The position numbers and the translations under genes were made by a program. A DNA stretch of 64,000 nt from an uncultured Pseudomonadota bacterium (GTDB lineage: Bacteria; Pseudomonadota; Alphaproteobacteria; Rs-D84): assembly GCA_902793435.1 (NCBI GenBank), contig CADBDF010000003.1, positions 26,167-90,166 on the forward strand. The letters run 5' to 3'. Positions 14,942 to 30,265 of the stretch are shown here, in pieces. The notes under the pieces were generated by a model that had not been told where the DNA came from, did no database searches, and was given only the letters and a program-made list of their open reading frames with translations. The stretch's first letter is position 1. Every line of letters starts with the position of its first letter.

Positions 14942-15685
14942 TTATTTATGATGAGTATATTTACATTTTGGATAATTTGAACAACCAAAAAATTCCCCGT
15001 ATTGTCCTTGGCGTAAAACCAGACGACCGTTGCACACAGGACAAATGTTTGCTGATATTTTTTTATGACGCGCCGCAACCGCATCTTCTACATCGCGAAT
15101 ATGCTGACGATTAGATACCAATTTATATTTTTTTATTTTTTGAATTTGGTCTGCAATTTCATTGGCACGTTTTGCCGATAACTTTATGTCATGATAACAC
15201 TTTATTTTGCCTGCGACCTGGGGGATATATACAACCGACGACGGCAATTGATGAAACATTAATCGACCCCGCGTGGAAAACGCAATTACCGATATAAATT
15301 TTGATGTCGGTATATTTAATTTATGCGACAACGCATTTATATGCCCAGCATTTTGTGTGATTGGATTAAAGAATTCATAGCGACGTCCATTATCAGTCTT
15401 GGTCCAATTTTCACCGTGTTCCGTTCCGGTAATAATGCCAGATATATTTTTAGTTTCCACCACAAAAATACCGTATTGCGACACGACAATATGGTCAATT
15501 TGCACACTGCCCCGCCCTGTTTTTAACATAACATCGTTGAATACGGCGTATTTATTGGACGGCAAAGATTTTAATCGACGCGCGACAGTTCCTTCGCCAA
15601 TATCACCACGAATTGGCGACGCAAAAGCCATCCAAATCAAGAAAACCACAATGGCAACCGCCCAAAAAGTTGTTTCTATATCCAT
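14942..15685 (-). CDS. NERD-domain protein with a C-terminal topoisomerase-type zinc ribbon
   Basis: N-terminal TM, then a NERD-like core (GEGTVARRL...VQIDHIVVSQYGIFVVETKN). C-terminus is CPVCNGRLVLRQGQYGEFFGCSNYPKCKYT. Confidence 0.7.
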   Translation of the reverse strand: MDIETTFWAVAIVVFLIWMAFASPIRGDIGEGTVARRLKSLPSNKYAVFNDVMLKTGRGSVQIDHIVVSQYGIFVVETKNISGIITGTEHGENWTKTDNGRRYEFFNPITQNAGHINALSHKLNIPTSKFISVIAFSTRGRLMFHQLPSSVVYIPQVAGKIKCYHDIKLSAKRANEIADQIQKIKKYKLVSNRQHIRDVEDAVAARHKKISANICPVCNGRLVLRQGQYGEFFGCSNYPKCKYTHHK

Positions 15686-15811: not shown

Positions 15812-15901
15812 GGATGGTTGGCAGAGCGGTCGAATGCGACGGTCTTGAAAACCGCTGACGGGGTAACTCGTCCGGGGGTTCGAATCCCTCACCATCCGCC
15901 A
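15812..15901 (+). tRNA. tRNA-Ser (anticodon UGA)
   Basis: 90 nt. Acceptor GGATGGT/ACCATCC, anticodon loop CTTGAAA, long variable arm (TGACGGGGTAACTCGTCC), T-loop TTCGAAT, encoded CCA. Closely parallels E. coli serT. Confidence 0.95.
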
Positions 15902-16183
15902 GTATTCTGGCATGTATGCCGATACAGATGAAACGCCCGCGGTTCTGCGGGATTTTTCATACATTGACTTCGGTATGGGCGAAAATTGCCCTTTTTTACG
16001 CCATAATATCCTGCTTCCTATACACCCCCCATTTTCCGATAGTCAATACCTTGAAAAATAGCCAGAAAACCCTATATAAACACCGTAATAAAATTATAAA
16101 ACACAGGAGAAAAAATCGCTTTTTTTCATTGAAAACACAAGGTTTTTGTATTACATTTTTCATGAAAATTTATGAGGACAATT

Positions 16184-16357
16184 ATGAAAGAAACAGTAAA
16201 AAATCAAATAAACATCAATAAGGTGGGTAAAAACTCTGTTGTCGCAAATGGTGATACTGCAGTTGCTATTGGTAAAACAGAAAAAAACATAAATAAAAAA
16301 TCTTTTTGGGCTTCGTTAATAGAGGCAGTATCACGAGTATTTAAAATATTTTGCTAA
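16184..16357 (+). CDS. small protein sharing an N-terminal motif with the downstream giant protein
   Basis: 57 aa from ATG 16184 (GAGG 8 nt upstream). KNSVVANGDTAVAIGK parallels QDSVVANGELAVAAGR of the next ORF. Stop lies 7 nt before that ORF. Confidence 0.55.
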   Translation: MKETVKNQININKVGKNSVVANGDTAVAIGKTEKNINKKSFWASLIEAVSRVFKIFC

Positions 16358-16364
16358 ATAAAAG

Positions 16365-19300
16365 GTGTGTAATTTGGCACTAGATAAAATCGAAAATCAC
16401 GCAGATGTTCTTCTATCTACCAAAAAGATACAAGATAGTGTAGTGGCCAATGGTGAACTGGCTGTTGCAGCAGGTCGCGATGTCAATATTTACGTACAAA
16501 TGCCGGCAAATCCGACCCCTGCAATCATGGAAGATTCGTCTTCAAGGGATTGTAAATTTAACAAAATTTTGCATAGGAATATAGATGTCGTAAAAGAATT
16601 GTTAAATACTGGTCAACCGGACAAAGCTTTGGATGAAATATTAAAAATTGAAACAATATATGAGGGCGAATTAAAGGAACCTGATGCAAAAAGACGTTTG
16701 TTACTTAATAAAGGGACTGCATTAATTCTATTAAATCGTCCATTAGAGGGTGCAAATTCTTATTTGGAGGGCTATTACTGTTCGCCGGACAATGAACTTT
16801 CTAACGCATTGCGTATAAAAGCATATTTTATCAAAAAAGATATTGCAGGACTAAAAAAAGCAATTTCTGAAGTTCCCGAAATTCATCGTACAAGCAGGGT
16901 AATCGCTGGACGTATACTTGAAGCAATTCAACTTGACATAAAAAACTTCCCCACAATGCCAGCAGAAATAAACGAAGTGTGTTTTGACGATGTTGCAAAC
17001 TGTCTGATAGCAAGCAAATTTTATTCTGTACGTGGAGATGAGACCAATGCCGCGAAATTTTTTAATCAAGCGAAAGATATAAATCCTGACGATTGGCAGA
17101 TTTTGGCTTGGGAAGGTACGCGATATATGGGAGATGAGCCACAAAAACAGCCCATAGGTGCGATTAGATCAGCCAAAGATTCACTAGAAAAAGCATGGAA
17201 TTTAATTAAAAATCAGACCAATGTACCGTTTGCCGAATTGTTATATATCCCCATAAACTTAGCTAGTGCGTACAGATTACTGAACATGCAAAAAGAGGAA
17301 CGCGACCTTATAGAAAATCTATATTCACGTTTCCCTGAAGATCCAGATGTATTGTTAAAAAAAATCCTTAACGCCGATGATTGTGCGGAAGCGGCACAAT
17401 TATCAGACAAACTTGATGTCAATAAAGGCTTTTATTATGCAGGATTGGCAGCGATATCATACATCAATAATAAGCAATATAATAAAGCATTATCTGTGTT
17501 ACAAAAAGCTCCGCACGACGCGAATTACGACCAATTAGAAATCGATTTAAGAACCTGCATATGTTACAAAGAGTTAAATAATATTACAGCGGTTGACAAT
17601 ATTATTAAAAAACAAAAATCGGTCGCTGCAAAGAAATTACTTATGCATATAAAAACTGGCAACGTGCGAGATTTAATTCAAGCACGCCGATTTCTGAAAC
17701 CCACAGATTGTGTATATATCAAAACAGAAATTGCGACAAGATTATATAAGGCACAATTATATACAGAAGCATCACCTGTGTACAAAGAAATAATCAAGAT
17801 TGTTGGTTTACACGATGTCATTTTATCACATTATTTAGATTGTTTACATAGGACATCTGATGTTTCGGGCATGTATAAAGTATTATCATCTGTTCCCAAT
17901 GAATACATTAATAATACTATATTGCAATATTGGGCTTTTTATCATGAGACTATGGGAGACAATGAAAAAGCCACATTATTTTTCAAAAAAGTATTCGACC
18001 AACAACCAGAAAATTCGAGAGTTGCAGTAAATCTGGCTATTATGTATCACCGGAACGATAATGAAGAAGCTTTGTTAAAACTATTGGATAAATTACCATC
18101 AAATTTAAATAAAATGTTTGGTGATGTCAAAGCTAAATGGCAGTTGCTTCACCTTATGTACGAACACAAGTTTGCAATGGAAACTCTCCCACAAAAAGCG
18201 TATGAATTAATAACTGAAAATCTTTATGATGAAGAATCTTGGAAAAACTATTTTACGTGGTTTATGACATGTTTAGCTGATTTCAAAATCGTAAACAATA
18301 AAACAGGTTTTATTTTGCACGACGAAGCAACCAATACCAACGAAATTTATATTATTGAAGATGACCCAAATATAAAAACCAACAAATTCTTTAATGTATT
18401 GCGAAGTTCCGATGTGTTCACAAAAAAATTAATGATGGCGGAAGAAAATTCCAATATCCAACTCGGACAAAATGGAATTGAATGCAAAGTTATTAATATT
18501 AACAATAAATACGTAACTGTAGGATGTATCATTCGCGACCAAATTTTTATACAATTTCCTGACTGTGATATAATTAGAATTGATGGGAAAACACCAGAAG
18601 AAGCCGTAGAAAAATTAAAACGACTGTTTAATTTTCAAAATCAGACACAGGATTTAATTAAAAATTATTATAAAGAAAAATATTTGCCAATATCCACGTT
18701 AGCAAATATGTTGGGAAAAGATGTAATAAGTCTAATGGAATTCCTTGCTACGGAAAAACTGATTGTATCGGAAGGGAGCGTAGTAGAGCAAAAGGATACC
18801 CAAAAACTGGTTAATAAACAAGCCGGATACATTATAGATGCGATTACTATTTTTAATGCATTTTGGTTCCATGTGGAGACCATGTTGGCAAATGTTGTTA
18901 AAGATAATCTTTACGTATCACAAAAAACCATAGATATTTTCAAATCGCTGAAAGAAGAGGAAATGCGATTCTTAAAAATGCGCGGTGGACGGCTTTTCAA
19001 AACTAATTCTGAAGACCAAAAATTGACATTTGCATCGCATGAAGACTTGAAAGACTATCAAAAAAATAAAATTAAAATGTTGGATGATATTCTTACATGG
19101 TTAGGTGAGAACGCAAAGATTATAATTCCATCTGGTGCATCAAAATTGTCTGACAACAAAGAACAGTTGCTTTCATTTTTTCAAGAAAAAGATTTAGAAA
19201 CAGCTTCTGTCATACGGTTAGCTAAGGATAAAAACTTAAACTTGTTGTCTGACGATTATATGCTGCGGGCAATGGCGAAAAAACAATTTGAAATAGATGG

Positions 19301-19721
19301 ACTATGGCTTCAAGGATTATTCATGTACAGCCCTTTTGCCAATAGTAATGAATATGTGGAATACGTTGTAAATTCTATAAAAAATAACCATAGCTTTATA
19401 AGTTTTAACTCTGCCAATCTATTTAAAATTTTTATCAAAGGGGGACCGGACATAAAAACTTTAGTAAACCAAATGAGAGCATGTTCATCAGAAAGCGCTA
19501 TAATAGTCGCAACAGAATTTTATAGTAAATTGATAACATTTGACAAAAACACACCACAAATTGCGTTTATGTTGATAGATGCTGTCTTGAATAGTGGCAC
19601 GCATACAGAATATAATATCAGATTAAGAGGCATGTTGGCAATTGCAAAGCACGATGCAATCTTTGACCGAGCACTACATGATTGGTGTACGGGACACTGT
19701 TTACCATATCCACAGGAATAA
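16365..19721 (+). CDS. 1118-aa TPR-repeat protein with a GreA/B C-terminal-like domain and a PIN-like domain
   Basis: TPR-like repeats over about residues 70-620 (e.g. ATLFFKKVFDQQPENSRVAVNLAIMY). Residues ~650-715 (EIYIIEDDPN...SSDVFTKKLMMAEENSNIQLGQNGIECKVININ) fit the GreA/B C-domain pattern. Residues ~815-1010 (GYIIDAITIFN...ETASVIRLAKDKNLNLLSDDYMLRAMA) look PIN-like. Start codon (GTG 16365 or TTG 16374) is uncertain. Confidence 0.7.
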   Translation: MCNLALDKIENHADVLLSTKKIQDSVVANGELAVAAGRDVNIYVQMPANPTPAIMEDSSSRDCKFNKILHRNIDVVKELLNTGQPDKALDEILKIETIYEGELKEPDAKRRLLLNKGTALILLNRPLEGANSYLEGYYCSPDNELSNALRIKAYFIKKDIAGLKKAISEVPEIHRTSRVIAGRILEAIQLDIKNFPTMPAEINEVCFDDVANCLIASKFYSVRGDETNAAKFFNQAKDINPDDWQILAWEGTRYMGDEPQKQPIGAIRSAKDSLEKAWNLIKNQTNVPFAELLYIPINLASAYRLLNMQKEERDLIENLYSRFPEDPDVLLKKILNADDCAEAAQLSDKLDVNKGFYYAGLAAISYINNKQYNKALSVLQKAPHDANYDQLEIDLRTCICYKELNNITAVDNIIKKQKSVAAKKLLMHIKTGNVRDLIQARRFLKPTDCVYIKTEIATRLYKAQLYTEASPVYKEIIKIVGLHDVILSHYLDCLHRTSDVSGMYKVLSSVPNEYINNTILQYWAFYHETMGDNEKATLFFKKVFDQQPENSRVAVNLAIMYHRNDNEEALLKLLDKLPSNLNKMFGDVKAKWQLLHLMYEHKFAMETLPQKAYELITENLYDEESWKNYFTWFMTCLADFKIVNNKTGFILHDEATNTNEIYIIEDDPNIKTNKFFNVLRSSDVFTKKLMMAEENSNIQLGQNGIECKVININNKYVTVGCIIRDQIFIQFPDCDIIRIDGKTPEEAVEKLKRLFNFQNQTQDLIKNYYKEKYLPISTLANMLGKDVISLMEFLATEKLIVSEGSVVEQKDTQKLVNKQAGYIIDAITIFNAFWFHVETMLANVVKDNLYVSQKTIDIFKSLKEEEMRFLKMRGGRLFKTNSEDQKLTFASHEDLKDYQKNKIKMLDDILTWLGENAKIIIPSGASKLSDNKEQLLSFFQEKDLETASVIRLAKDKNLNLLSDDYMLRAMAKKQFEIDGLWLQGLFMYSPFANSNEYVEYVVNSIKNNHSFISFNSANLFKIFIKGGPDIKTLVNQMRACSSESAIIVATEFYSKLITFDKNTPQIAFMLIDAVLNSGTHTEYNIRLRGMLAIAKHDAIFDRALHDWCTGHCLPYPQE

Positions 19722-19733
19722 TTGCTTTTTGAT

Positions 19734-21362
19734 TTAACATCCATAAAACGCAGATTCTTGTTTATCAAAATCTGCGTATTTTTGTGCGATACCGAACAAG
19801 GTTTGCAGGTTCACGTGTGCAGGTACTTCGCCTTCCAGTATGTCGCCAATTATTTTAGGTGACAGGTATGCCAGGTTCATGTATTTATATACCGTTCTAT
19901 CGGCACGATGTTCTGTGCGTTTAATCTGGTCAACCGGAACACCGGCTTCGTATTGCTTTTTATATTTCCATCCGAATGCCAGTGCCTTGGTCAATATCTG
20001 TGCGTTTTCTGTTTTTGTATGTATTGATACTTCGCCACCATCACATCGGTGGTTTATACAGGTTCGCGTATTCACATAGAACTGTGTTTCCACAACCGCA
20101 TATTTACCATCGTTGGTTATATACATATGCATAGGTTCTACTTTTGAATTTATGGTGTCTGTTTTGAATTGTTCCAGATAACCCATGTCGTCAATCTTGA
20201 TGAATATTGCCAGGGCATTTTTGTTAAACACTATTTTATCAACCATTTGTTGCATCAATTCGTCTGAATAACAAGTTTGTTTGAATTCTAATCGCTTGGC
20301 TTCCGGTATAGCAATCATATCAGAATCCAAGAATCTTTTTATCGTATCTGTAACAATCTGTTCCACATCGCCAGCCGGTAATGATATTTTATCGGCTTTG
20401 TAATAGCGGTATTTTTTCAATCTGTTATCTTTGTTGCTTTGTTGGTTCTTGAATATCTGGCCATCCGGTGTTTGTATCTTATTATGCAACAATGATTTAC
20501 CGATGGTGTAACCCGCATTTTTGTGATTGTTGCCATCGTGCAGTTTCTGTTGCACATCGTTAAATAATTTTTCATCAAGTATCGCTTCATGCAATCCGTT
20601 AAATGTCTCTTTGCTTCGCTTGTTTGCAATCTTGCCAATATATACCGGATTTTTCAGGATTCTGTCCAATGAACTGGTGGCTATGATTGTACCACCTTTT
20701 TGTTGGCCTTTGTTGGTTGTCCATGTCTTTCCGCGTATTCCCATATCAATCAGTCGCAAGCGGCAATCTGACATACCAGTACTTATCATATATGTATTAA
20801 ATATCCGGCGGACTGTTTCGGCTTCGGTTTCATTTACCACCAACTTCCCATCGATAACATCGTACCCAAGCGGTGGTATTCCACCAATCCACATCCCCTT
20901 TGCTTTTGTGGCACGGATTTTATCACGCACACGTTCCCCAGACACTTCGCGTTCAAATTCTGCGAACGATAGTAGCATGTTCAGGGTTAGTTTGCCCATG
21001 GCAGTGCTAGTATCGAATGATTGCGTTATGCTGACCAGATTGCAGTTATGTGGTTCAAAATCTTCCTTCATCATGCGTTTAAAGTCATATATGCTACGCG
21101 ACAATCTGTCGATTTTATAAACCAGAACACATTGTATTCGACCAGCTTTGATATCGGCCAGCATTTCCTGTAAACCTGGACGGGCCATCGTTCCGCCAGA
21201 AATCGCCGCATCACTGTAAGTCTTGTAATATTGCCAACCATTAAACGATTGGGAAGCAATATACGCTTTACAAGACTCTTCTTGGTTTTGCAGAGAATTA
21301 AACTCCTGTTCCAATCCATGTTCAGTTGATTTACGCGTATAAATAGCACATCTAATCGTCAT
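19734..21362 (-). CDS. large serine recombinase
   Basis: 542 aa. N-terminal resolvase catalytic domain (CAIYTRKSTEHGLEQEFNSLQNQ, VLVYKIDRLSRS), a recombinase domain (GGIPPLGYD) and a long C-terminal extension. Confidence 0.9.
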   Translation of the reverse strand: MTIRCAIYTRKSTEHGLEQEFNSLQNQEESCKAYIASQSFNGWQYYKTYSDAAISGGTMARPGLQEMLADIKAGRIQCVLVYKIDRLSRSIYDFKRMMKEDFEPHNCNLVSITQSFDTSTAMGKLTLNMLLSFAEFEREVSGERVRDKIRATKAKGMWIGGIPPLGYDVIDGKLVVNETEAETVRRIFNTYMISTGMSDCRLRLIDMGIRGKTWTTNKGQQKGGTIIATSSLDRILKNPVYIGKIANKRSKETFNGLHEAILDEKLFNDVQQKLHDGNNHKNAGYTIGKSLLHNKIQTPDGQIFKNQQSNKDNRLKKYRYYKADKISLPAGDVEQIVTDTIKRFLDSDMIAIPEAKRLEFKQTCYSDELMQQMVDKIVFNKNALAIFIKIDDMGYLEQFKTDTINSKVEPMHMYITNDGKYAVVETQFYVNTRTCINHRCDGGEVSIHTKTENAQILTKALAFGWKYKKQYEAGVPVDQIKRTEHRADRTVYKYMNLAYLSPKIIGDILEGEVPAHVNLQTLFGIAQKYADFDKQESAFYGC

Positions 21363-21792
21363 GTTTTTTCCTTTTGTTTATACCAAAGAAGAAATTACCA
21401 GACATTTTCATGCCTGCGATTTTAGTTGCAACTGCCGACAATGTTGAATATTTGTCACCGTTATATGAAAAACTGCCATCATCATTGACTAAGATGGTGT
21501 ATTTTATACCCTTGAAATATCGGGTTAAAATTGTGCCTGGGACAAAGTTATATTTATTTGGACATGCATGGTCTAAACATTGTTCTGGATTATCCTTGTA
21601 TTTTCGAATTTTTACCAAATATTTATGTTCAATTCGTAGGTTTAAGCGATCACATTGAATATAATACCAAAGCGACCGCAGTTGCCTTTTAAATGGATAT
21701 TGTGAGTATTTTGCCCATAATCGAACTCGTTCATCAAAAGACAATGCTTTCAACTCATCCATCGTCTTTGGCATGTTATCTTTATATGACAT
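21352..21792 (-). CDS. DUF2924-family protein (usual upstream partner of large serine recombinases)
   Basis: 146 aa. GTILTRYFKGIKYTILVNDDGSFSYNGDKYSTLSAVATKIAGMKMSGNFFFG matches the DUF2924 C-terminal pattern. Overlaps the recombinase gene by 11 nt. Confidence 0.7.
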   Translation of the reverse strand: MSYKDNMPKTMDELKALSFDERVRLWAKYSQYPFKRQLRSLWYYIQCDRLNLRIEHKYLVKIRKYKDNPEQCLDHACPNKYNFVPGTILTRYFKGIKYTILVNDDGSFSYNGDKYSTLSAVATKIAGMKMSGNFFFGINKRKKHDD

Positions 21793-21941: not shown

Positions 21942-22814
21942 ATGGATTATGAAAATATTTTCAAGGATTTTTTGGATTTAATTTATCACAATGACATTTT
22001 GCCAAATGAAATTGTTTGTGTTTTAGAAAAATATAGCAAAAACAGAGATTTTCGGTTAATTTGTGATTTATTGTATTATAAAGAGAAGTATTGTAAAACT
22101 GCTGGCGATCCAAGGACACAACAATTTTATACGGAATTGACTATGCATGCTCGCGCTTTACAGGACATCAATATTTGGCGAGACGCAATGTCGTTAAATA
22201 ATTTAAGCTATTTGAAAGCCGCTCTTAATAATGACGCTCATAATGATACTCATAGGTCGGATCCTGCAATTATTAAACCGATGATGCAACAATTGATAAG
22301 GGCAGCCAACTTAAAACCTGATGGATATCTCATTAATAATATCGATAAAAAATATACGCAAAACACTACAAATCTAAACTCAGATAAAATACTTACACTA
22401 GATAATTTAAAAATTGGTGATGAAGTAGATCATCATTTTTTACGTGATCATTTTAAAATCAATATTCAACGAGGTATGCACTTTAAACAAAAGATAATTT
22501 TAATATCTAAATTTTCTGCTTATGCGGATGAAGAAAGAGACGGCATATTACATTATTTGGGACATAATATTGTAAACGATCATGGAGGTAAATTTAATCA
22601 AACACGAACCGGAGAGAATGAGAGATTTTGTGATGCGATTGATAATTTTAAAAAGGGCGGCCAGGTTTCGTATTTTAAAATTTTTCAAAAAAGAAACAAA
22701 TGGATGTACAAAGGAGAATACGCTCTGATAGATTATAATTATACAGGTTCTAAAAATCCAAATGATATAAATTCTGATAGAAAAGTATATGAATTCTTAT
22801 TACGAAAAAAATAG
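21942..22814 (+). CDS. hypothetical protein; C-terminal half possibly an SRA/PUA-like modified-base reader
   Basis: 290 aa. GILHYLGHNIVNDHGGKFNQTRTGENERFCDAIDNFKKGGQVSYFKIFQKRNKWMYKGEYALIDY loosely follows the Y.G.GG...Q.l..gN.al...g.pv.vf.....y.Y.G.Y pattern of SRA-type readers. Weak call. Confidence 0.3.
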   Translation: MDYENIFKDFLDLIYHNDILPNEIVCVLEKYSKNRDFRLICDLLYYKEKYCKTAGDPRTQQFYTELTMHARALQDINIWRDAMSLNNLSYLKAALNNDAHNDTHRSDPAIIKPMMQQLIRAANLKPDGYLINNIDKKYTQNTTNLNSDKILTLDNLKIGDEVDHHFLRDHFKINIQRGMHFKQKIILISKFSAYADEERDGILHYLGHNIVNDHGGKFNQTRTGENERFCDAIDNFKKGGQVSYFKIFQKRNKWMYKGEYALIDYNYTGSKNPNDINSDRKVYEFLLRKK

Positions 22815-22823
22815 GCAATTTGA

Positions 22824-24107
22824 ATGAAGTTGCAAGAAAAATTAAATAATATTTCAAAAACATCAAAATTATCTTTATTGAAAGACGGCCGGTCGGTTGA
22901 TTTGGATGAGTTTTGGACCACATTTATAGAACCTTTTCTTCCGCCCAAAAAAGCAGTTGAGGGTTGGCATAAAATTTTGAAGAAATATATAAACGAAAAA
23001 AATGCTATTTTTTCGATACGGAAGTTTGGTAGTTATCGTGATAACAAAACAAAAGATCGCAAAACGTTGAGGCGCGGGTTCCTTAACCTAACAAATCTTG
23101 GTATTAACGCATTTTTTATTGATAATTTTTTTACATCGTATTTCTTTTCAATGGCTTATGATGGTTATGTGCCTGATTATAATGATTTCAAAGAAATGAT
23201 GCTCTCTAGAAAATTTCCGTGTGGCTATATTGTTACCAAAACAGAAACTGCACTCGCCGCATTTCATAAAGGAAAAGATCCACGTATTCAATATAAAGGT
23301 TATAAAATAGCACATATTCATGACGCTGGTCGTGATTTTAATATATCAAATATCAAGACAGTTGGTGATTTTTGTAAATTGTTTTTCCCATTAGGAGAAT
23401 ATGATGATTGGAAAGCCATAAAAAAAGATAAAAATGGACCTTATCACTATAGAAATTTATCGATAAAAAAAGACGACCAAAAACTTGTAAAACAGTTTCT
23501 GGTTGCGCATTTTTTACGAACGGTTCATCCCATAAATTATTTCTTGGTTCCTAAACAATTTTGTATTTCCTTTGTTAATGATAAGGGTGAAACCAAATAC
23601 GAAATTGGCGAATACGAACCCCTTATTAAATATGTAAGACAAAAAATCAAACAACGATACGGTGCAATTTATAATCAATATCTTGCATTAATTAAACGTA
23701 TCGATGACGAACAAACAGAGCAAGAAAACATTATTATAAATGCGGTTTATGGTTTAAATGGTTTTAGAAAAAACAAATCTAAAAAAACAACAAAAAAAAT
23801 TAAAACATTGAAAAAATCTAGCGGTTCATCAGGCATAGGGAAAATTGTACGAGAAACACTAATTCCTGGTCTGAACAAAATTCCGTCGGCAGAGATCAAA
23901 AAACTGCAAACTAAACAGTATTCCAAGAATACTTTTGATATAAATTATCCTCTTTTATCTAAAAATAGATTTGATAGCAATGGTCGTCCACGTTATTACG
24001 CTACACCAATACGAATTAATGGTGCTGATTGGTATGTTTGTCAGGAATGGTATGCCAGATGTGAACCCAAATTAAGGGTATGGTTAGCATTACATAACAT
24101 AGGTTAA
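22824..24107 (+). CDS. hypothetical protein; possible His-Me finger (HNH-like) nuclease
   Basis: 427 aa, starting 10 nt after the previous gene. KIAHIHDAGRDFNISNIKTV and LVAHFLRTVHPINYFLVP resemble H-N-H cores lacking Cys ligands. Has a Lys-rich linker and a C-terminal RPRYYATPIRINGADWYVCQEWY module. Weak call. Confidence 0.3.
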   Translation: MKLQEKLNNISKTSKLSLLKDGRSVDLDEFWTTFIEPFLPPKKAVEGWHKILKKYINEKNAIFSIRKFGSYRDNKTKDRKTLRRGFLNLTNLGINAFFIDNFFTSYFFSMAYDGYVPDYNDFKEMMLSRKFPCGYIVTKTETALAAFHKGKDPRIQYKGYKIAHIHDAGRDFNISNIKTVGDFCKLFFPLGEYDDWKAIKKDKNGPYHYRNLSIKKDDQKLVKQFLVAHFLRTVHPINYFLVPKQFCISFVNDKGETKYEIGEYEPLIKYVRQKIKQRYGAIYNQYLALIKRIDDEQTEQENIIINAVYGLNGFRKNKSKKTTKKIKTLKKSSGSSGIGKIVRETLIPGLNKIPSAEIKKLQTKQYSKNTFDINYPLLSKNRFDSNGRPRYYATPIRINGADWYVCQEWYARCEPKLRVWLALHNIG

Positions 24108-25082: not shown

Positions 25083-26552
25083 TTATTTGTTCGTATAGGT
25101 AAATATTACATCCAACAATCGAACCATTGCCAAGGTATCTTGCCCGCAATATTCACGCAGATTTTTCATCATTTCTTCTGTTTCCTGTGGCGTTTGATTT
25201 CTGTTCATAAAATCTAAAAATTGGCTGCTGGCTTCTGTTCCGTTATGAATCCCCAGGGTTTCATAGGACAATTCCGGAACAAACGTGGGCAATGTTTTTT
25301 TGATTGATACACTACCGTTTTGACAAGGACAATACAGACCACGATTTTTAAATGGTTCTTCTAAATCTAAAATGCGTTCATTTATTGATGATAGTTTTTT
25401 GGCAAACTCTGGAAAATCAAAAGCCATTTCACAGTTACGGCCTTTTTCAAATGTTTTGTGATAGACGACTACTGAACCCGTATCACCGATTACATCACAT
25501 AACTTTTTCAATAGTCCTGGTCTAGGGTCTGTTTCTGGGTTGTCGTGTAAATATTCATAATGTTCCAATTTGCCGCCAGGCGTCCTTTGCACATGTAATG
25601 AAAATTGAAAACAAATTTGTTGATAGGCGTGCGAATTATCAAATATCGGCACCGCCGACATAATTGTTTCATAATCAAGAAAGTATAAAGGCCATTGCAA
25701 ATTATTCGTAAATTGTTTCAAGATGTTTAGATTGATTACATCTATATTATCTAAAAACGCTTCTATATCCCCGGAATGCTGTTGTTTATAGTAAATATCG
25801 ACAGGAACATTATGCAAATCAGCACCATATTTTGCATAAATTTCGTCTGCCAATTTTCCTTTGAATGCATCAAAAACTGAATACTGTGGCAAATCTTTCC
25901 AACAATGACATTTATATTCGCATTTATAGAATTTATTGTTACATTTCGTCTTAGAAATAGCGATGCCAAGTTCTGGACCAGACAGAAATGCGCGTATACG
26001 ATTTATTTCCGATTGCACCGTTTCCATATCTTGCATTTTACCGGCTACATCGTGCAAAGCGAACAACTGTGCCAAATCTAAATCACCATGGCGAATATAT
26101 TCTTTATTTAGTGTCATTACAAAGCAATTACGAACCTTGATTCCACAGTGGTTTAATACATACCTCTGAAAAGAAACATCTAAATAGTGATATTCATGTG
26201 GTTCTGGATTCGATTTTACCTCTATAATATCCCATGTTCCGTCATTGTTGTTTTGTAAAATATCAACAGCACAATATTCATCAGTATCGGTGCAAAATGT
26301 CGCTTCATAGATGTATGACGCATTTTGTGTGATGGCTTTTTGGGTTTGTTCTATGGCTTCTGGTTCCCAAGGCTTTGCAGTGATGCGAACGCCTCCAGGG
26401 AATCTGTCACATGCTAATTCACCAACAGCAGTTCCAGCATCCAATATTGCTTGATTTTTGTCGGATTCTATATCTTTACGATATTTTTTGAACCACAACG
26501 CATTCGGGCATTTAATTCCAGTTACATAATCAGACTTTGATATTTTTATCAT
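25083..26552 (-). CDS. DUF2779-family protein (Cas4/PD-(D/E)xK-like N-terminal nuclease plus C-terminal domain)
   Basis: 489 aa. The N-terminus MIKISKSDYVTGIKCPNALWFKKY is the characteristic DUF2779 start. DIIEVKS fits a PD-(D/E)xK core. Cys cluster CNNKFYKCEYKCHC. Confidence 0.6.
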   Translation of the reverse strand: MIKISKSDYVTGIKCPNALWFKKYRKDIESDKNQAILDAGTAVGELACDRFPGGVRITAKPWEPEAIEQTQKAITQNASYIYEATFCTDTDEYCAVDILQNNNDGTWDIIEVKSNPEPHEYHYLDVSFQRYVLNHCGIKVRNCFVMTLNKEYIRHGDLDLAQLFALHDVAGKMQDMETVQSEINRIRAFLSGPELGIAISKTKCNNKFYKCEYKCHCWKDLPQYSVFDAFKGKLADEIYAKYGADLHNVPVDIYYKQQHSGDIEAFLDNIDVINLNILKQFTNNLQWPLYFLDYETIMSAVPIFDNSHAYQQICFQFSLHVQRTPGGKLEHYEYLHDNPETDPRPGLLKKLCDVIGDTGSVVVYHKTFEKGRNCEMAFDFPEFAKKLSSINERILDLEEPFKNRGLYCPCQNGSVSIKKTLPTFVPELSYETLGIHNGTEASSQFLDFMNRNQTPQETEEMMKNLREYCGQDTLAMVRLLDVIFTYTNK

Positions 26553-27467: not shown

Positions 27468-28915
27468 TTAAAAACCTATTTTTGTTTGTTTTTTATGTAA
27501 ATCTTTGACCTGTTGTTCCTGACGTAATCTGGATAACAGTTCAGATTTATCTGTAATTCCTAGTAAATCTGCTTGTTTTTTTACAACAGCAAAATCACCA
27601 GGTGCTAAATTCGTTAAATCAGCAATTTCTTCCTTGGAAATTTGTTGATTAAAAAAATCTTGAAAAGCCATAATGACTTGGTCAGGTTTTAAGAATTCGT
27701 ATTTAACCTTGAACGAAAACCTGCGAAGCGCGGCTTTATCTATATTGTCCATCAAATTAGTCGTGCAAACAAACGGATAGTCCGCATTTTCCATCTGAGC
27801 CAACATTTCGTTTACAGAACAGACTTCCCAAGAACGCGCTGCTCGGGTTCTGTCCATAAGGAAACTGTCTGCTTCATCGAAAACCAGCATTACTTTTTTT
27901 GCACGTGCTTCCGCAAACGCACGGGCAATATTCTTTTCTGTTTGACCTACATACATACCGTTTATATCGCTGGCACGTTTTTTTATTATGTTTATGCCCA
28001 ACAAATCAGCCAGATGTTCACAAAATGCGGTTTTCCCTGTTCCTGGTTTGCCGTATAACAAAATGTTTATACCAGTTTTTTTGAGTTAATACCACCCGTT
28101 AAAATATCTGATATCTTGTCAAAATCATCGACCATATAATCAAAATTGTCGCGTTTTAAATTCGCGGATAAAGAGGCACCAATCAAGACATCGCGAACGT
28201 CCTTGCACTTGTCAAAATTCATGGTTAGTAAATTCAAAAACATTGAACTGAATGAATTATCACCATAGCGATGTTTTTATATCCCCGATTCTGCCAATAC
28301 GCCAGTTTGAGACATGATTTCTTTGACTTTTTCCGACGGTATTTTACATATTGCAGATACAAAATCTGCATTTATATCGTCCATAAAATCATTACTGATT
28401 CCATCATTGAAACAACAAAGTAATCTGCGTAATTGAGAATTTTTTTTAATAAACACCAAAAATTGCAATAAAATTCGACTATCGTTCGGCAAATCAAAAG
28501 TATCACAAATTATGGTAAAATTTTTATCAAAATCTGGATTGGTAATATCGGTGTCAAAATCTGATTTGCGGACATCAAAAATATTAGACACACGTTCATA
28601 CAAAGCATCTTCGGCTAGTAAACTGTTCCGACATAATTTGCCATTTAGTAAATTTATAAGGAATTCAGCCTTTTCGTTTGCAGAAACACGTTTTTCACCA
28701 CTATTAATCAGGTCACGCAAATTAAACCCAAACAAATCGGTCGAATGCCTTGACAGATGATGAAAGAACATATCTGTATCATCTGGTTCGTATTCGCTAC
28801 TCGTTACATTTTTCAAATAATGCATCGCCAGTTGTCTGTCTTTTATATTCATATTTACGCCTTTTTTCGGGGTTCGTGGGTAATATAAATACCATGCTGG
28901 ACAAAAACGGTCCAT
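27468..28915 (-). pseudogene. AAA+ ATPase gene interrupted by one nonsense codon and one frameshift
   Basis: The 28277-28915 ORF ends at TAA (28277-28279), but the same frame stays open for 69 more codons. At the A7 run (28076-28082) adding one A joins ...TGGINSKK to TGINILLYGKPGTGKT (Walker A), with VMLVFDEAD (Walker B) and the rest of an AAA+ core following. Confidence 0.7.
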
Positions 28916-30245: not shown

Positions 30246-30265
30246 AATCCCTCACCATCCGCCAG
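30246..30265 (+). repeat. right-hand direct repeat of the tRNA-Ser 3' end
   Basis: aatccctcaccatccgccag is identical to 15883-15902. Confidence 0.9.

Follow-up and report, generated by a model that had tools for sequence, protein, structure and literature searches.

TPR-GreA/B-C-PIN (TGP) proteins were described by Kaur et al. (eLife 2021, PMC8195603) as sharing a core of TPR repeats, a GreA/B C-terminal domain (GreA/B-C) and a PIN domain, joined to a rapidly evolving, variable N-terminal module, for which they listed EAD10 and 13 enzymatic effector domains; most of the genes were said to stand alone. These authors proposed RNA-polymerase-directed transcript cleavage, with the PIN domain as the primary effector and the apoptotic effector as a back-up. 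Here we describe a two-gene locus in a 64,000-nucleotide (nt) stretch of contig CADBDF010000003.1 from an uncultured alphaproteobacterium, hereafter the window. The locus encodes a 57-amino-acid (aa) protein, the mini-partner, and, 7 nt further on, a TGP protein of 1118 aa. The large protein has the same TPR, GreA/B-C and PIN core as the TGP systems of Kaur et al. (PMC8195603), and differs from them in that its N-terminal module is a disordered tail of ~58 residues and in that a conserved partner gene is present.

The only tested relative is the pair of E. coli ECOR25 formed by Agp, a TGP of 1094 aa, and the adjacently encoded Bab, which together confer abortive infection against T5 (Ibarlosa et al., bioRxiv 10.1101/2024.11.07.622273). 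Bab has 109 aa and consists of an ~80-residue, five-helix Babybell domain, in which an N-terminal pore helix is sheathed by four helices, followed by a C-terminal BASS11 motif. Resistance to T5 is lost when beta-breaker mutations are placed in the motif of Bab or in that of Agp, and likewise when GreA/B-C is mutated; Bab acts as the executioner, and Agp showed no activity independent of Bab (10.1101/2024.11.07.622273). An earlier, sequence-only reading of the window had taken the TGP architecture to be known from computational surveys only, a view that is out of date now that Bab/Agp, with its shared amyloid motif, has been demonstrated experimentally (10.1101/2024.11.07.622273).

The window locus resembles Bab/Agp in several respects. 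Its sensor is a TGP with a short N-terminal motif replacing the effector domain, the product of the adjacent small gene has the sensor's motif, the setting is a mobile island or prophage, and the partner is presumed to target a membrane. Unlike the 109-residue Bab, the mini-partner carries its motif N-terminally and ends in a single C-terminal amphipathic helix, with no room for a Bell domain, and the host is a gut alphaproteobacterium rather than an enterobacterium. This build of motif plus amphipathic helix is the feature that separates the locus from Bab/Agp, and it had been missed in the sequence-only reading.

Fungal HET-S/NWD2 and the Bell/NLR BASS pairs (Dyrka et al. 2020, 10.1101/2020.01.06.895854) follow the same logic, in which the N-terminal motif of a receptor equals that of its effector, and their motifs, as here, vary between families and match within a pair. 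The receptors of these fungal and bacterial pairs are STAND NTPases (NB-ARC or NACHT), whereas the window receptor is a TGP in which Pfam, NCBIfam and PADLOC scans found no NTPase domain; their effectors combine a folded domain (HeLo, Bell, hydrolase, TIR, CHAT) and a C-terminal motif, in contrast to the single helix of the mini-partner. The effectors linked to BASS so far comprise Bell, alpha/beta-hydrolase, TIR, CHAT and guanylate cyclase domains, with the effector motif at the C-terminus, and BASS11 also occurs on EAD7, NACHT and NB-ARC proteins. No description of single-helix mini-effectors was found in the literature.

We consider it rather probable that the two genes form an abortive-infection module of the TGP/amyloid-signalling type, in which the executioner has been reduced to a tag and a helix. 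In such a module the large protein would be the sensor, with its TPR solenoid and GreA/B-C domain monitoring the cell for phage takeover, and its PIN nuclease may cut transcripts. The first ~58 residues of the sensor would act as a disordered tail bearing a G/N/V/A-rich motif of ~25–30 residues, and the mini-partner would present the same motif N-terminally, followed by a Lys-rich linker and one cationic amphipathic helix. Upon infection the sensor would oligomerise, and its tails would nucleate a cross-beta fold that templates the motif of the partner; the resulting polymer would concentrate the amphipathic helices, the inner membrane would be permeabilised and the infected cell would die. 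We infer amyloid formation, the direction of signalling, membrane killing and phage defence by analogy with Bab/Agp and with fungal HET-S/NWD2.

An ORF (open reading frame) scan recovered both genes and the 7-nt gap between them as they had first been read (Table 1). For the large gene, translation could just as plausibly begin at TTG 16374: the AAAGGTG at 16361–16367 is better placed for this codon, and the gene call of a close relative starts at the equivalent leucine. The conclusions are the same with both starts. Judged by sequence profiles and a structural model, the large protein is a true TGP. The AlphaFold2 (AF2) model, built from a 76-sequence alignment of diverse TGPs, had a mean predicted local distance difference test score (pLDDT) of 88.6 and a predicted template modelling score (pTM) of 0.79; it superseded a run on 15 close homologues only, which was unusable (pLDDT 54.7). 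The three parts named in the sequence-only reading (TPR-like repeats, a GreA/B-C segment and a PIN-like region) were all recovered, the latter two near the places proposed for them. Within the solenoid, TPR_14 and TPR_19 scored above the Pfam cut-offs, the AF2 pLDDT was ~90 and the top Foldseek matches were TPR proteins. A family profile of residues 640–722 searched against the PDB returned GreA (1grj, E = 6.7e-6), GreB (7.6e-4) and Gfh1 (0.015) as its top three matches, hhalign aligned the region to residues 90–154 of E. coli GreA with a probability of 94.4%, and the AF2 topology of residues 648–713 was beta-beta-beta-alpha-beta-beta. In GreA this domain docks on the secondary channel of RNA polymerase, and RNA-polymerase binding is predicted for its counterpart in the large protein.

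The C-terminal region matched the Pfam family PF20698, 'PIN domain associated with the TPR-GreAB-C-PIN system', over residues 848–972 (E = 7.3e-11; 42.9 bits against a cut-off of 27.8). The core of the domain holds the segments YIIDAITIF (822–830) and LLSDDYMLR (960–968), and its conserved acidic residues are D825, D857, D943 and D963/D964, and across 76 diverse TGPs the conservation of D825 and D964 is 90% or higher. Nuclease activity is predicted for this domain. Neither the small nor the large protein was matched by any PADLOC model.

The small gene has an alternative in-frame ATG at 16172, which would give a product of 61 aa. The start at 16184 is preferred because of its Shine-Dalgarno spacing, with GAGGA five nt ahead of the ATG, and because an identical 57-aa protein (P0017) is present in public gene calls. 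The mini-partner had no significant family match (none in Pfam or PADLOC, and one far-sub-threshold match in NCBIfam). Comparison with orthologues gave a ratio of non-synonymous to synonymous substitution rates (dN/dS) of 0.16–0.42, which is purifying selection. By analogy with known pairs, its N-terminal motif is proposed to be an amyloid-forming signalling motif. A Lys-rich linker (TEKNINKK) leads from the motif to residues 40–57, which are probably helical, to judge from their residue pattern, and which we propose as the membrane-active element. In its size and build the mini-partner resembles type I toxins, holin-like peptides and amphipathic antimicrobial peptides, which have ~50–60 aa, are positively charged overall and contain a single amphipathic or transmembrane helix. 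Such small membrane peptides have no templating motif in common with a neighbouring sensor, and they are controlled by antisense RNA or by timing, not by a sensor protein.

That both proteins carry the same motif near their N-termini, as the sequence-only reading had pointed out, was confirmed statistically. Residues 16–31 of the small protein (nt 16229–16276) and 23–38 of the large one (nt 16431–16478) are identical at 10 of 16 positions, with a local BLOSUM62 score of 50 for the motif pair. None of 5000 shuffles of the small protein reached this score against residues 1–60 of the large protein, 8 of 2000 reached it against the whole large protein, and a loose regular expression for the motif core, run over all six frames of the window, matched these two places only. 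It could be argued that such a likeness is a low-complexity coincidence and the small ORF spurious or an unrelated leader ORF, given a short motif rich in G, N, A and V and the score reached by some shuffles against all 1118 residues. We regard this as highly improbable in view of the shuffles against the N-terminal 60 residues, the uniqueness of the motif in the window and the low dN/dS, as well as two comparative results given below: the ORF is conserved beside all homologues, and the differing motifs of independent lineages each match their own partner best. Taken with the comparative data, a chance similarity or spurious ORF is effectively refuted.

Among 1.84 billion cluster representatives, HMMER detected 911 relatives of the large protein, of which 429 matched at E<1e-10. 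Most have ~1300 aa and carry an additional N-terminal domain in place of the short tail of the window protein; the alignment consensus of this domain, GRxGQxQxGVD...QCK, in our reading resembles a restriction-endonuclease motif. No N-terminal domain was present in 18 of 131 full-length TGP representatives. Short G/N-rich N-terminal tails were also noted in the TGP representatives P0090, P0099 and P0115. A search with the full-length diverse alignment was swamped by generic TPR proteins, and its useful return was a Myxococcus TGP only.

All homologues in the loci L001–L014, which fall into groups of 87–93% and ~45% identity, have a 55–61-aa partner directly upstream; the small ORF is thus conserved beside every homologue examined in this set, a co-occurrence that the sequence-only reading had named as a check. 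The sources of these loci are gut alphaproteobacterial (including Candidatus Enterousia) or unlabelled gut metagenome assemblies, with one exception. In L005 (JAMPEH010000001.1, P0014) the contig is labelled Muribaculaceae (Bacteroidota) and the pair lies beside phage terminase, ParB and methyltransferase genes; the label could be a binning error or could reflect phage-borne transfer. All other named records are alphaproteobacterial assemblies or carry the label 'uncultured proteobacterium'. The partner family had only 14 members among 5.8 billion proteins searched. Its layout is constant, with the motif KNQININK.GK..V[VI]ANGD.A[VI]A.GK, a Lys-rich linker and then a hydrophobic or amphipathic helix, and the net charge of the partners is +5 to +8 (+2 in L019).

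Distant short-tailed TGPs (L015, L017, L018 and L019; 19–33% identity) each have an upstream partner of 48–61 aa, again built of a motif and one helix, and the motif sequence differs from lineage to lineage. When all tails and partners were compared in an all-against-all matrix, the cognate pair was the top match in both directions for each of these four loci. Strict co-occurrence and cognate motif matching in independent lineages support the earlier suggestion of a tag that links the two proteins by interaction or oligomerisation. The partners in L019 and L018 have a true transmembrane helix, which in L019 is the segment equivalent to the window helix. The L018 partner (L018:190-336, beside TGP P0113) is reversed, with an N-terminal transmembrane helix, MTTSDWISLVSLLVSILSAG, and the motif at the C-terminus. 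The beginning of this partner bears a loose resemblance to the 'MEPIS'-type N-terminus of Bell/Hell domains, as in a Bab without the sheath helices. In the negative control, an all-in-one TGP of Burkholderia (1500 aa, L020), no motif-bearing mini-ORF was evident upstream.

The conserved helix also bears on a decoy relationship, which the sequence-only reading had raised as an option. As a negative regulator, that is, a cap or antitoxin-like decoy, the small protein would pair with the tail and keep the TGP monomeric and inactive, and killing would fall to the PIN nuclease. Such a role would agree with the position of the small gene immediately upstream of the large one, where the 7-nt spacer makes co-translation probable, with the motif common to both proteins, with the intact acidic residues D825 and D964 and with the proposal of PIN as the primary effector (Kaur et al., PMC8195603). 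We nevertheless consider it unlikely, since every partner of five lineages has a membrane-type helix, including bona fide transmembrane ones, which a soluble cap does not need, and since in the tested system Bab is the executioner and Agp showed no activity without it. An effector role is favoured over a decoy because the membrane-type helix is always present in the partner and because of the precedent of Bab.

The same helix could instead serve as a membrane anchor or adaptor, with beta-strand pairing of the motifs holding the TGP at the inner membrane, for instance close to where phage DNA enters, and with no killing role of its own. A transmembrane or amphipathic helix combined with a shared motif would suit this function, as would the basic character of the partner and its Lys-rich juxtamembrane linker, which are typical of membrane-associated peptides. 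However, the predicted target of GreA/B-C is cytoplasmic RNA polymerase, which requires no membrane tethering; a stable 1:1 tether would leave unexplained why a G/N-rich motif, disordered in the monomer, diversifies so fast in both proteins; and the Bab/Agp analogy favours an effector. We therefore regard an anchor as quite unlikely.

Several points weigh against the proposed amyloid-signalling module. The amyloid propensity of the motif is judged from composition, pattern and analogy only, and the comparison with Bab/Agp was made on the published description of that system. The mini-partner is without a folded 'sheath' such as Babybell to keep a free helix harmless before activation. Its helix is amphipathic, with no clear transmembrane segment (best 19-residue Kyte-Doolittle mean, 0.87). 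In the Enterousia clade a tail does not in every case match its own partner best, and the similarity within the L001 pair is weak, with a score of 32. For the large protein, the assignment as PIN comes from the Pfam model alone: a profile of the PIN region found no significant PIN match in the PDB, where PIN-like HARP RNase P appeared at E~0.2-1, and Foldseek searches of the whole model against the PDB and BFVD returned TPR proteins only.

A Bell-type partner can also stand beside a TGP. In Myxococcus sp. SDU36 (L021:2187-5974, CP077414.1) the short-tailed TGP P0179 has an upstream partner, and the common motif of the two reads RIDAEKVVVAQSIHTINM versus EVNAKTAVVAASIHNLSL. Unlike the mini-partner, this partner has 103 aa; it begins with a hydrophobic helix ('MDPVT...'), continues with a helical region and ends in the motif, which is the layout of Bell/Bab-type proteins. 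The non-Bell layout of the window partner is therefore a real difference, and both layouts occur within the TGP family. The Myxococcus pair is found in a culturable myxobacterium and is a possible experimental system for comparison. In tblastn searches for Bab/Agp, phages gave nothing and plasmids gave only all-in-one TGPs of Burkholderia and Agrobacterium; no E. coli entry was present among the TGP cluster names, and a PDB search with the Bell-like partner did not return 9H9V.

The tail of the sensor and the partner diverge in concert. In five of six close orthologues, residues 10–45 of the tail are 39–47% identical, against ~90% over the rest of the protein; the sixth, P0001, has a tail identity of 97%. 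In the same comparison the partner is 63% identical, and hence more diverged than the sensor. This hot-spot of divergence suggests either that the tail is under diversifying selection or that the tag is exchanged along with the partner gene.

With Bab/Agp the TGP architecture has already been put to the test, and what a shared terminal motif means is known in principle; what is new here is the proposed minimal effector, which turns up again in independent lineages. Tentatively, and a shade short of an even chance, we propose that, in several bacterial lineages, TGP sensors with a short tail act through a class of minimal amyloid-triggered toxins not described before, namely basic proteins of 48–61 aa that consist solely of a templating motif and a single membrane-active helix, arranged in either order. 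So far Bab/Agp, with its folded Bell-type effector, is the single tested case of amyloid signalling in defence against phages, and the locus and its relatives suggest that this family of sensors also operates with effectors made of a tag and one helix. If this is true, amyloid-controlled cell death needs no folded execution domain of the Bell/HeLo type, the pair would be the smallest known receptor-effector pair of its kind, and a tag of ~25 residues with a helix of ~18 residues would offer a natural two-part scaffold for engineering. The locus would then bear on the minimal requirements for amyloid-controlled membrane killing and on how such a peptide is restrained before the trigger, as well as on how the tags of receptor and effector co-evolve in their specificity; compared with the remainder of the sensor, tail and partner change far more quickly. 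The locus also widens the range of TGP/amyloid systems, which comes to include uncultured gut Alphaproteobacteria (Candidatus Enterousia and relatives), with their prophages and islands.

Table 1. Features of the two-gene locus and of the surrounding island, in window coordinates.
Feature	Position	Strand	Basis or remark
tRNA-Ser(UGA)	15812..15901	+	Island integration target; ARAGORN
attL, 20-nt direct repeat AATCCCTCACCATCCGCCAG	15883..15902	+	Spans the 3' end of tRNA-Ser; repeat search
Candidate promoter TTGAAA-17-TACATT	16129..16157	+	Consensus scan, 9/12 positions; weak evidence
Mini-partner gene, 57 aa, net charge +6	16184..16357	+	ORF scan; Shine-Dalgarno GAGGA 16174-16178
Shared motif, mini-partner residues 6-31, KNQININKVGKNSVVANGDTAVAIGK	16199..16276	+	Conserved across the partner family; matches the large-protein tail
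Predicted C-terminal amphipathic helix, mini-partner residues 40-57, SFWASLIEAVSRVFKIFC	16301..16354	+	Hydrophobic moment 0.53-0.57
TGP protein gene, 1118 aa, GTG start	16365..19721	+	7 nt past the stop of the small ORF
Disordered N-terminal tail, residues 1-58	16365..16538	+	AF2 pLDDT <50
Shared motif, large-protein residues 10-43, core QDSVVANGELAVAAGR at residues 23-38	16392..16493	+	Inside the disordered tail
TPR-like alpha-solenoid, residues 58-638	16536..18278	+	Pfam TPR_14, TPR_19; AF2 helices; Foldseek
GreA/B C-terminal-like (FKBP-like) domain, residues 647-713	18303..18503	+	PDB profile search, hhalign, AF2
Helical linker, residues 715-818			AF2 model
PIN-like nuclease domain, alpha/beta core residues 819-990	18819..19334	+	Pfam PF20698; AF2 alpha/beta topology, residues 822-975
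C-terminal helical extension, residues 994-1110, helical over 982-1110 in the AF2 model, W1107..GH motif	19344..19694	+	Conserved across the TGP family
Large serine recombinase (19734-21362) and DUF2924 protein (21352-21792)	19734..21792	-	Pfam Resolvase, Recombinase, DUF2924
attR, second copy of AATCCCTCACCATCCGCCAG	30246..30265	+	100% identical to attL; end of ~14.4-kb island

The attL site that the sequence-only reading had placed ahead of the pair was found as an exact 20-nt repeat, formed by the final 19 nt of tRNA-Ser and one further base. Because the exact copies begin at 15883 and 30246, the two-gene operon is the first operon inside the island that they delimit. The number of promoter-like sites in the region did not exceed the expectation from shuffled sequence. 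Downstream of the operon, the serine recombinase and the DUF2924 protein are probably the mobility genes of the island. They include its only recognisable recombinase, no tyrosine integrase being found between 15883 and 30265; at 20 nt, the repeat is long for the site of a serine recombinase.

Other genes of the island encode a GNAT protein and possible further defence cargo at 27468–28061 (-), 25083–26552 (-) and 21942–24107 (+), namely an IetA-like AAA fragment, a Cas4/DUF2779 nuclease and two adjoining proteins of 290 and 427 aa that had no family matches. The AAA ATPase matches the PADLOC IetA profile at positions ~120–263 only; it could be truncated, or its start may have been called wrongly. 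Homologous modules elsewhere lie at prophage ends and beside DpnII/Mrr, KAP NTPase and UvrD genes. Taken together, these gene contexts (a tRNA island with defence-like genes, prophage ends and defence-type neighbours) point to defence. As the pair lies at a prophage end in relatives and in a serine-recombinase island in the window, the module moves between different mobile elements. In L001, L005 and L011 the pair is preceded at the prophage end by a conserved block of ParB_N/N6_N4 methyltransferase, DUF5681 and terminase genes. Just outside attL in the window, a 247-aa protein (14942–15685, -) shows a weak PADLOC match to the N-terminal part of PglW and has a Cys-rich C-terminal end (CPVCNG...CSNYPKC).

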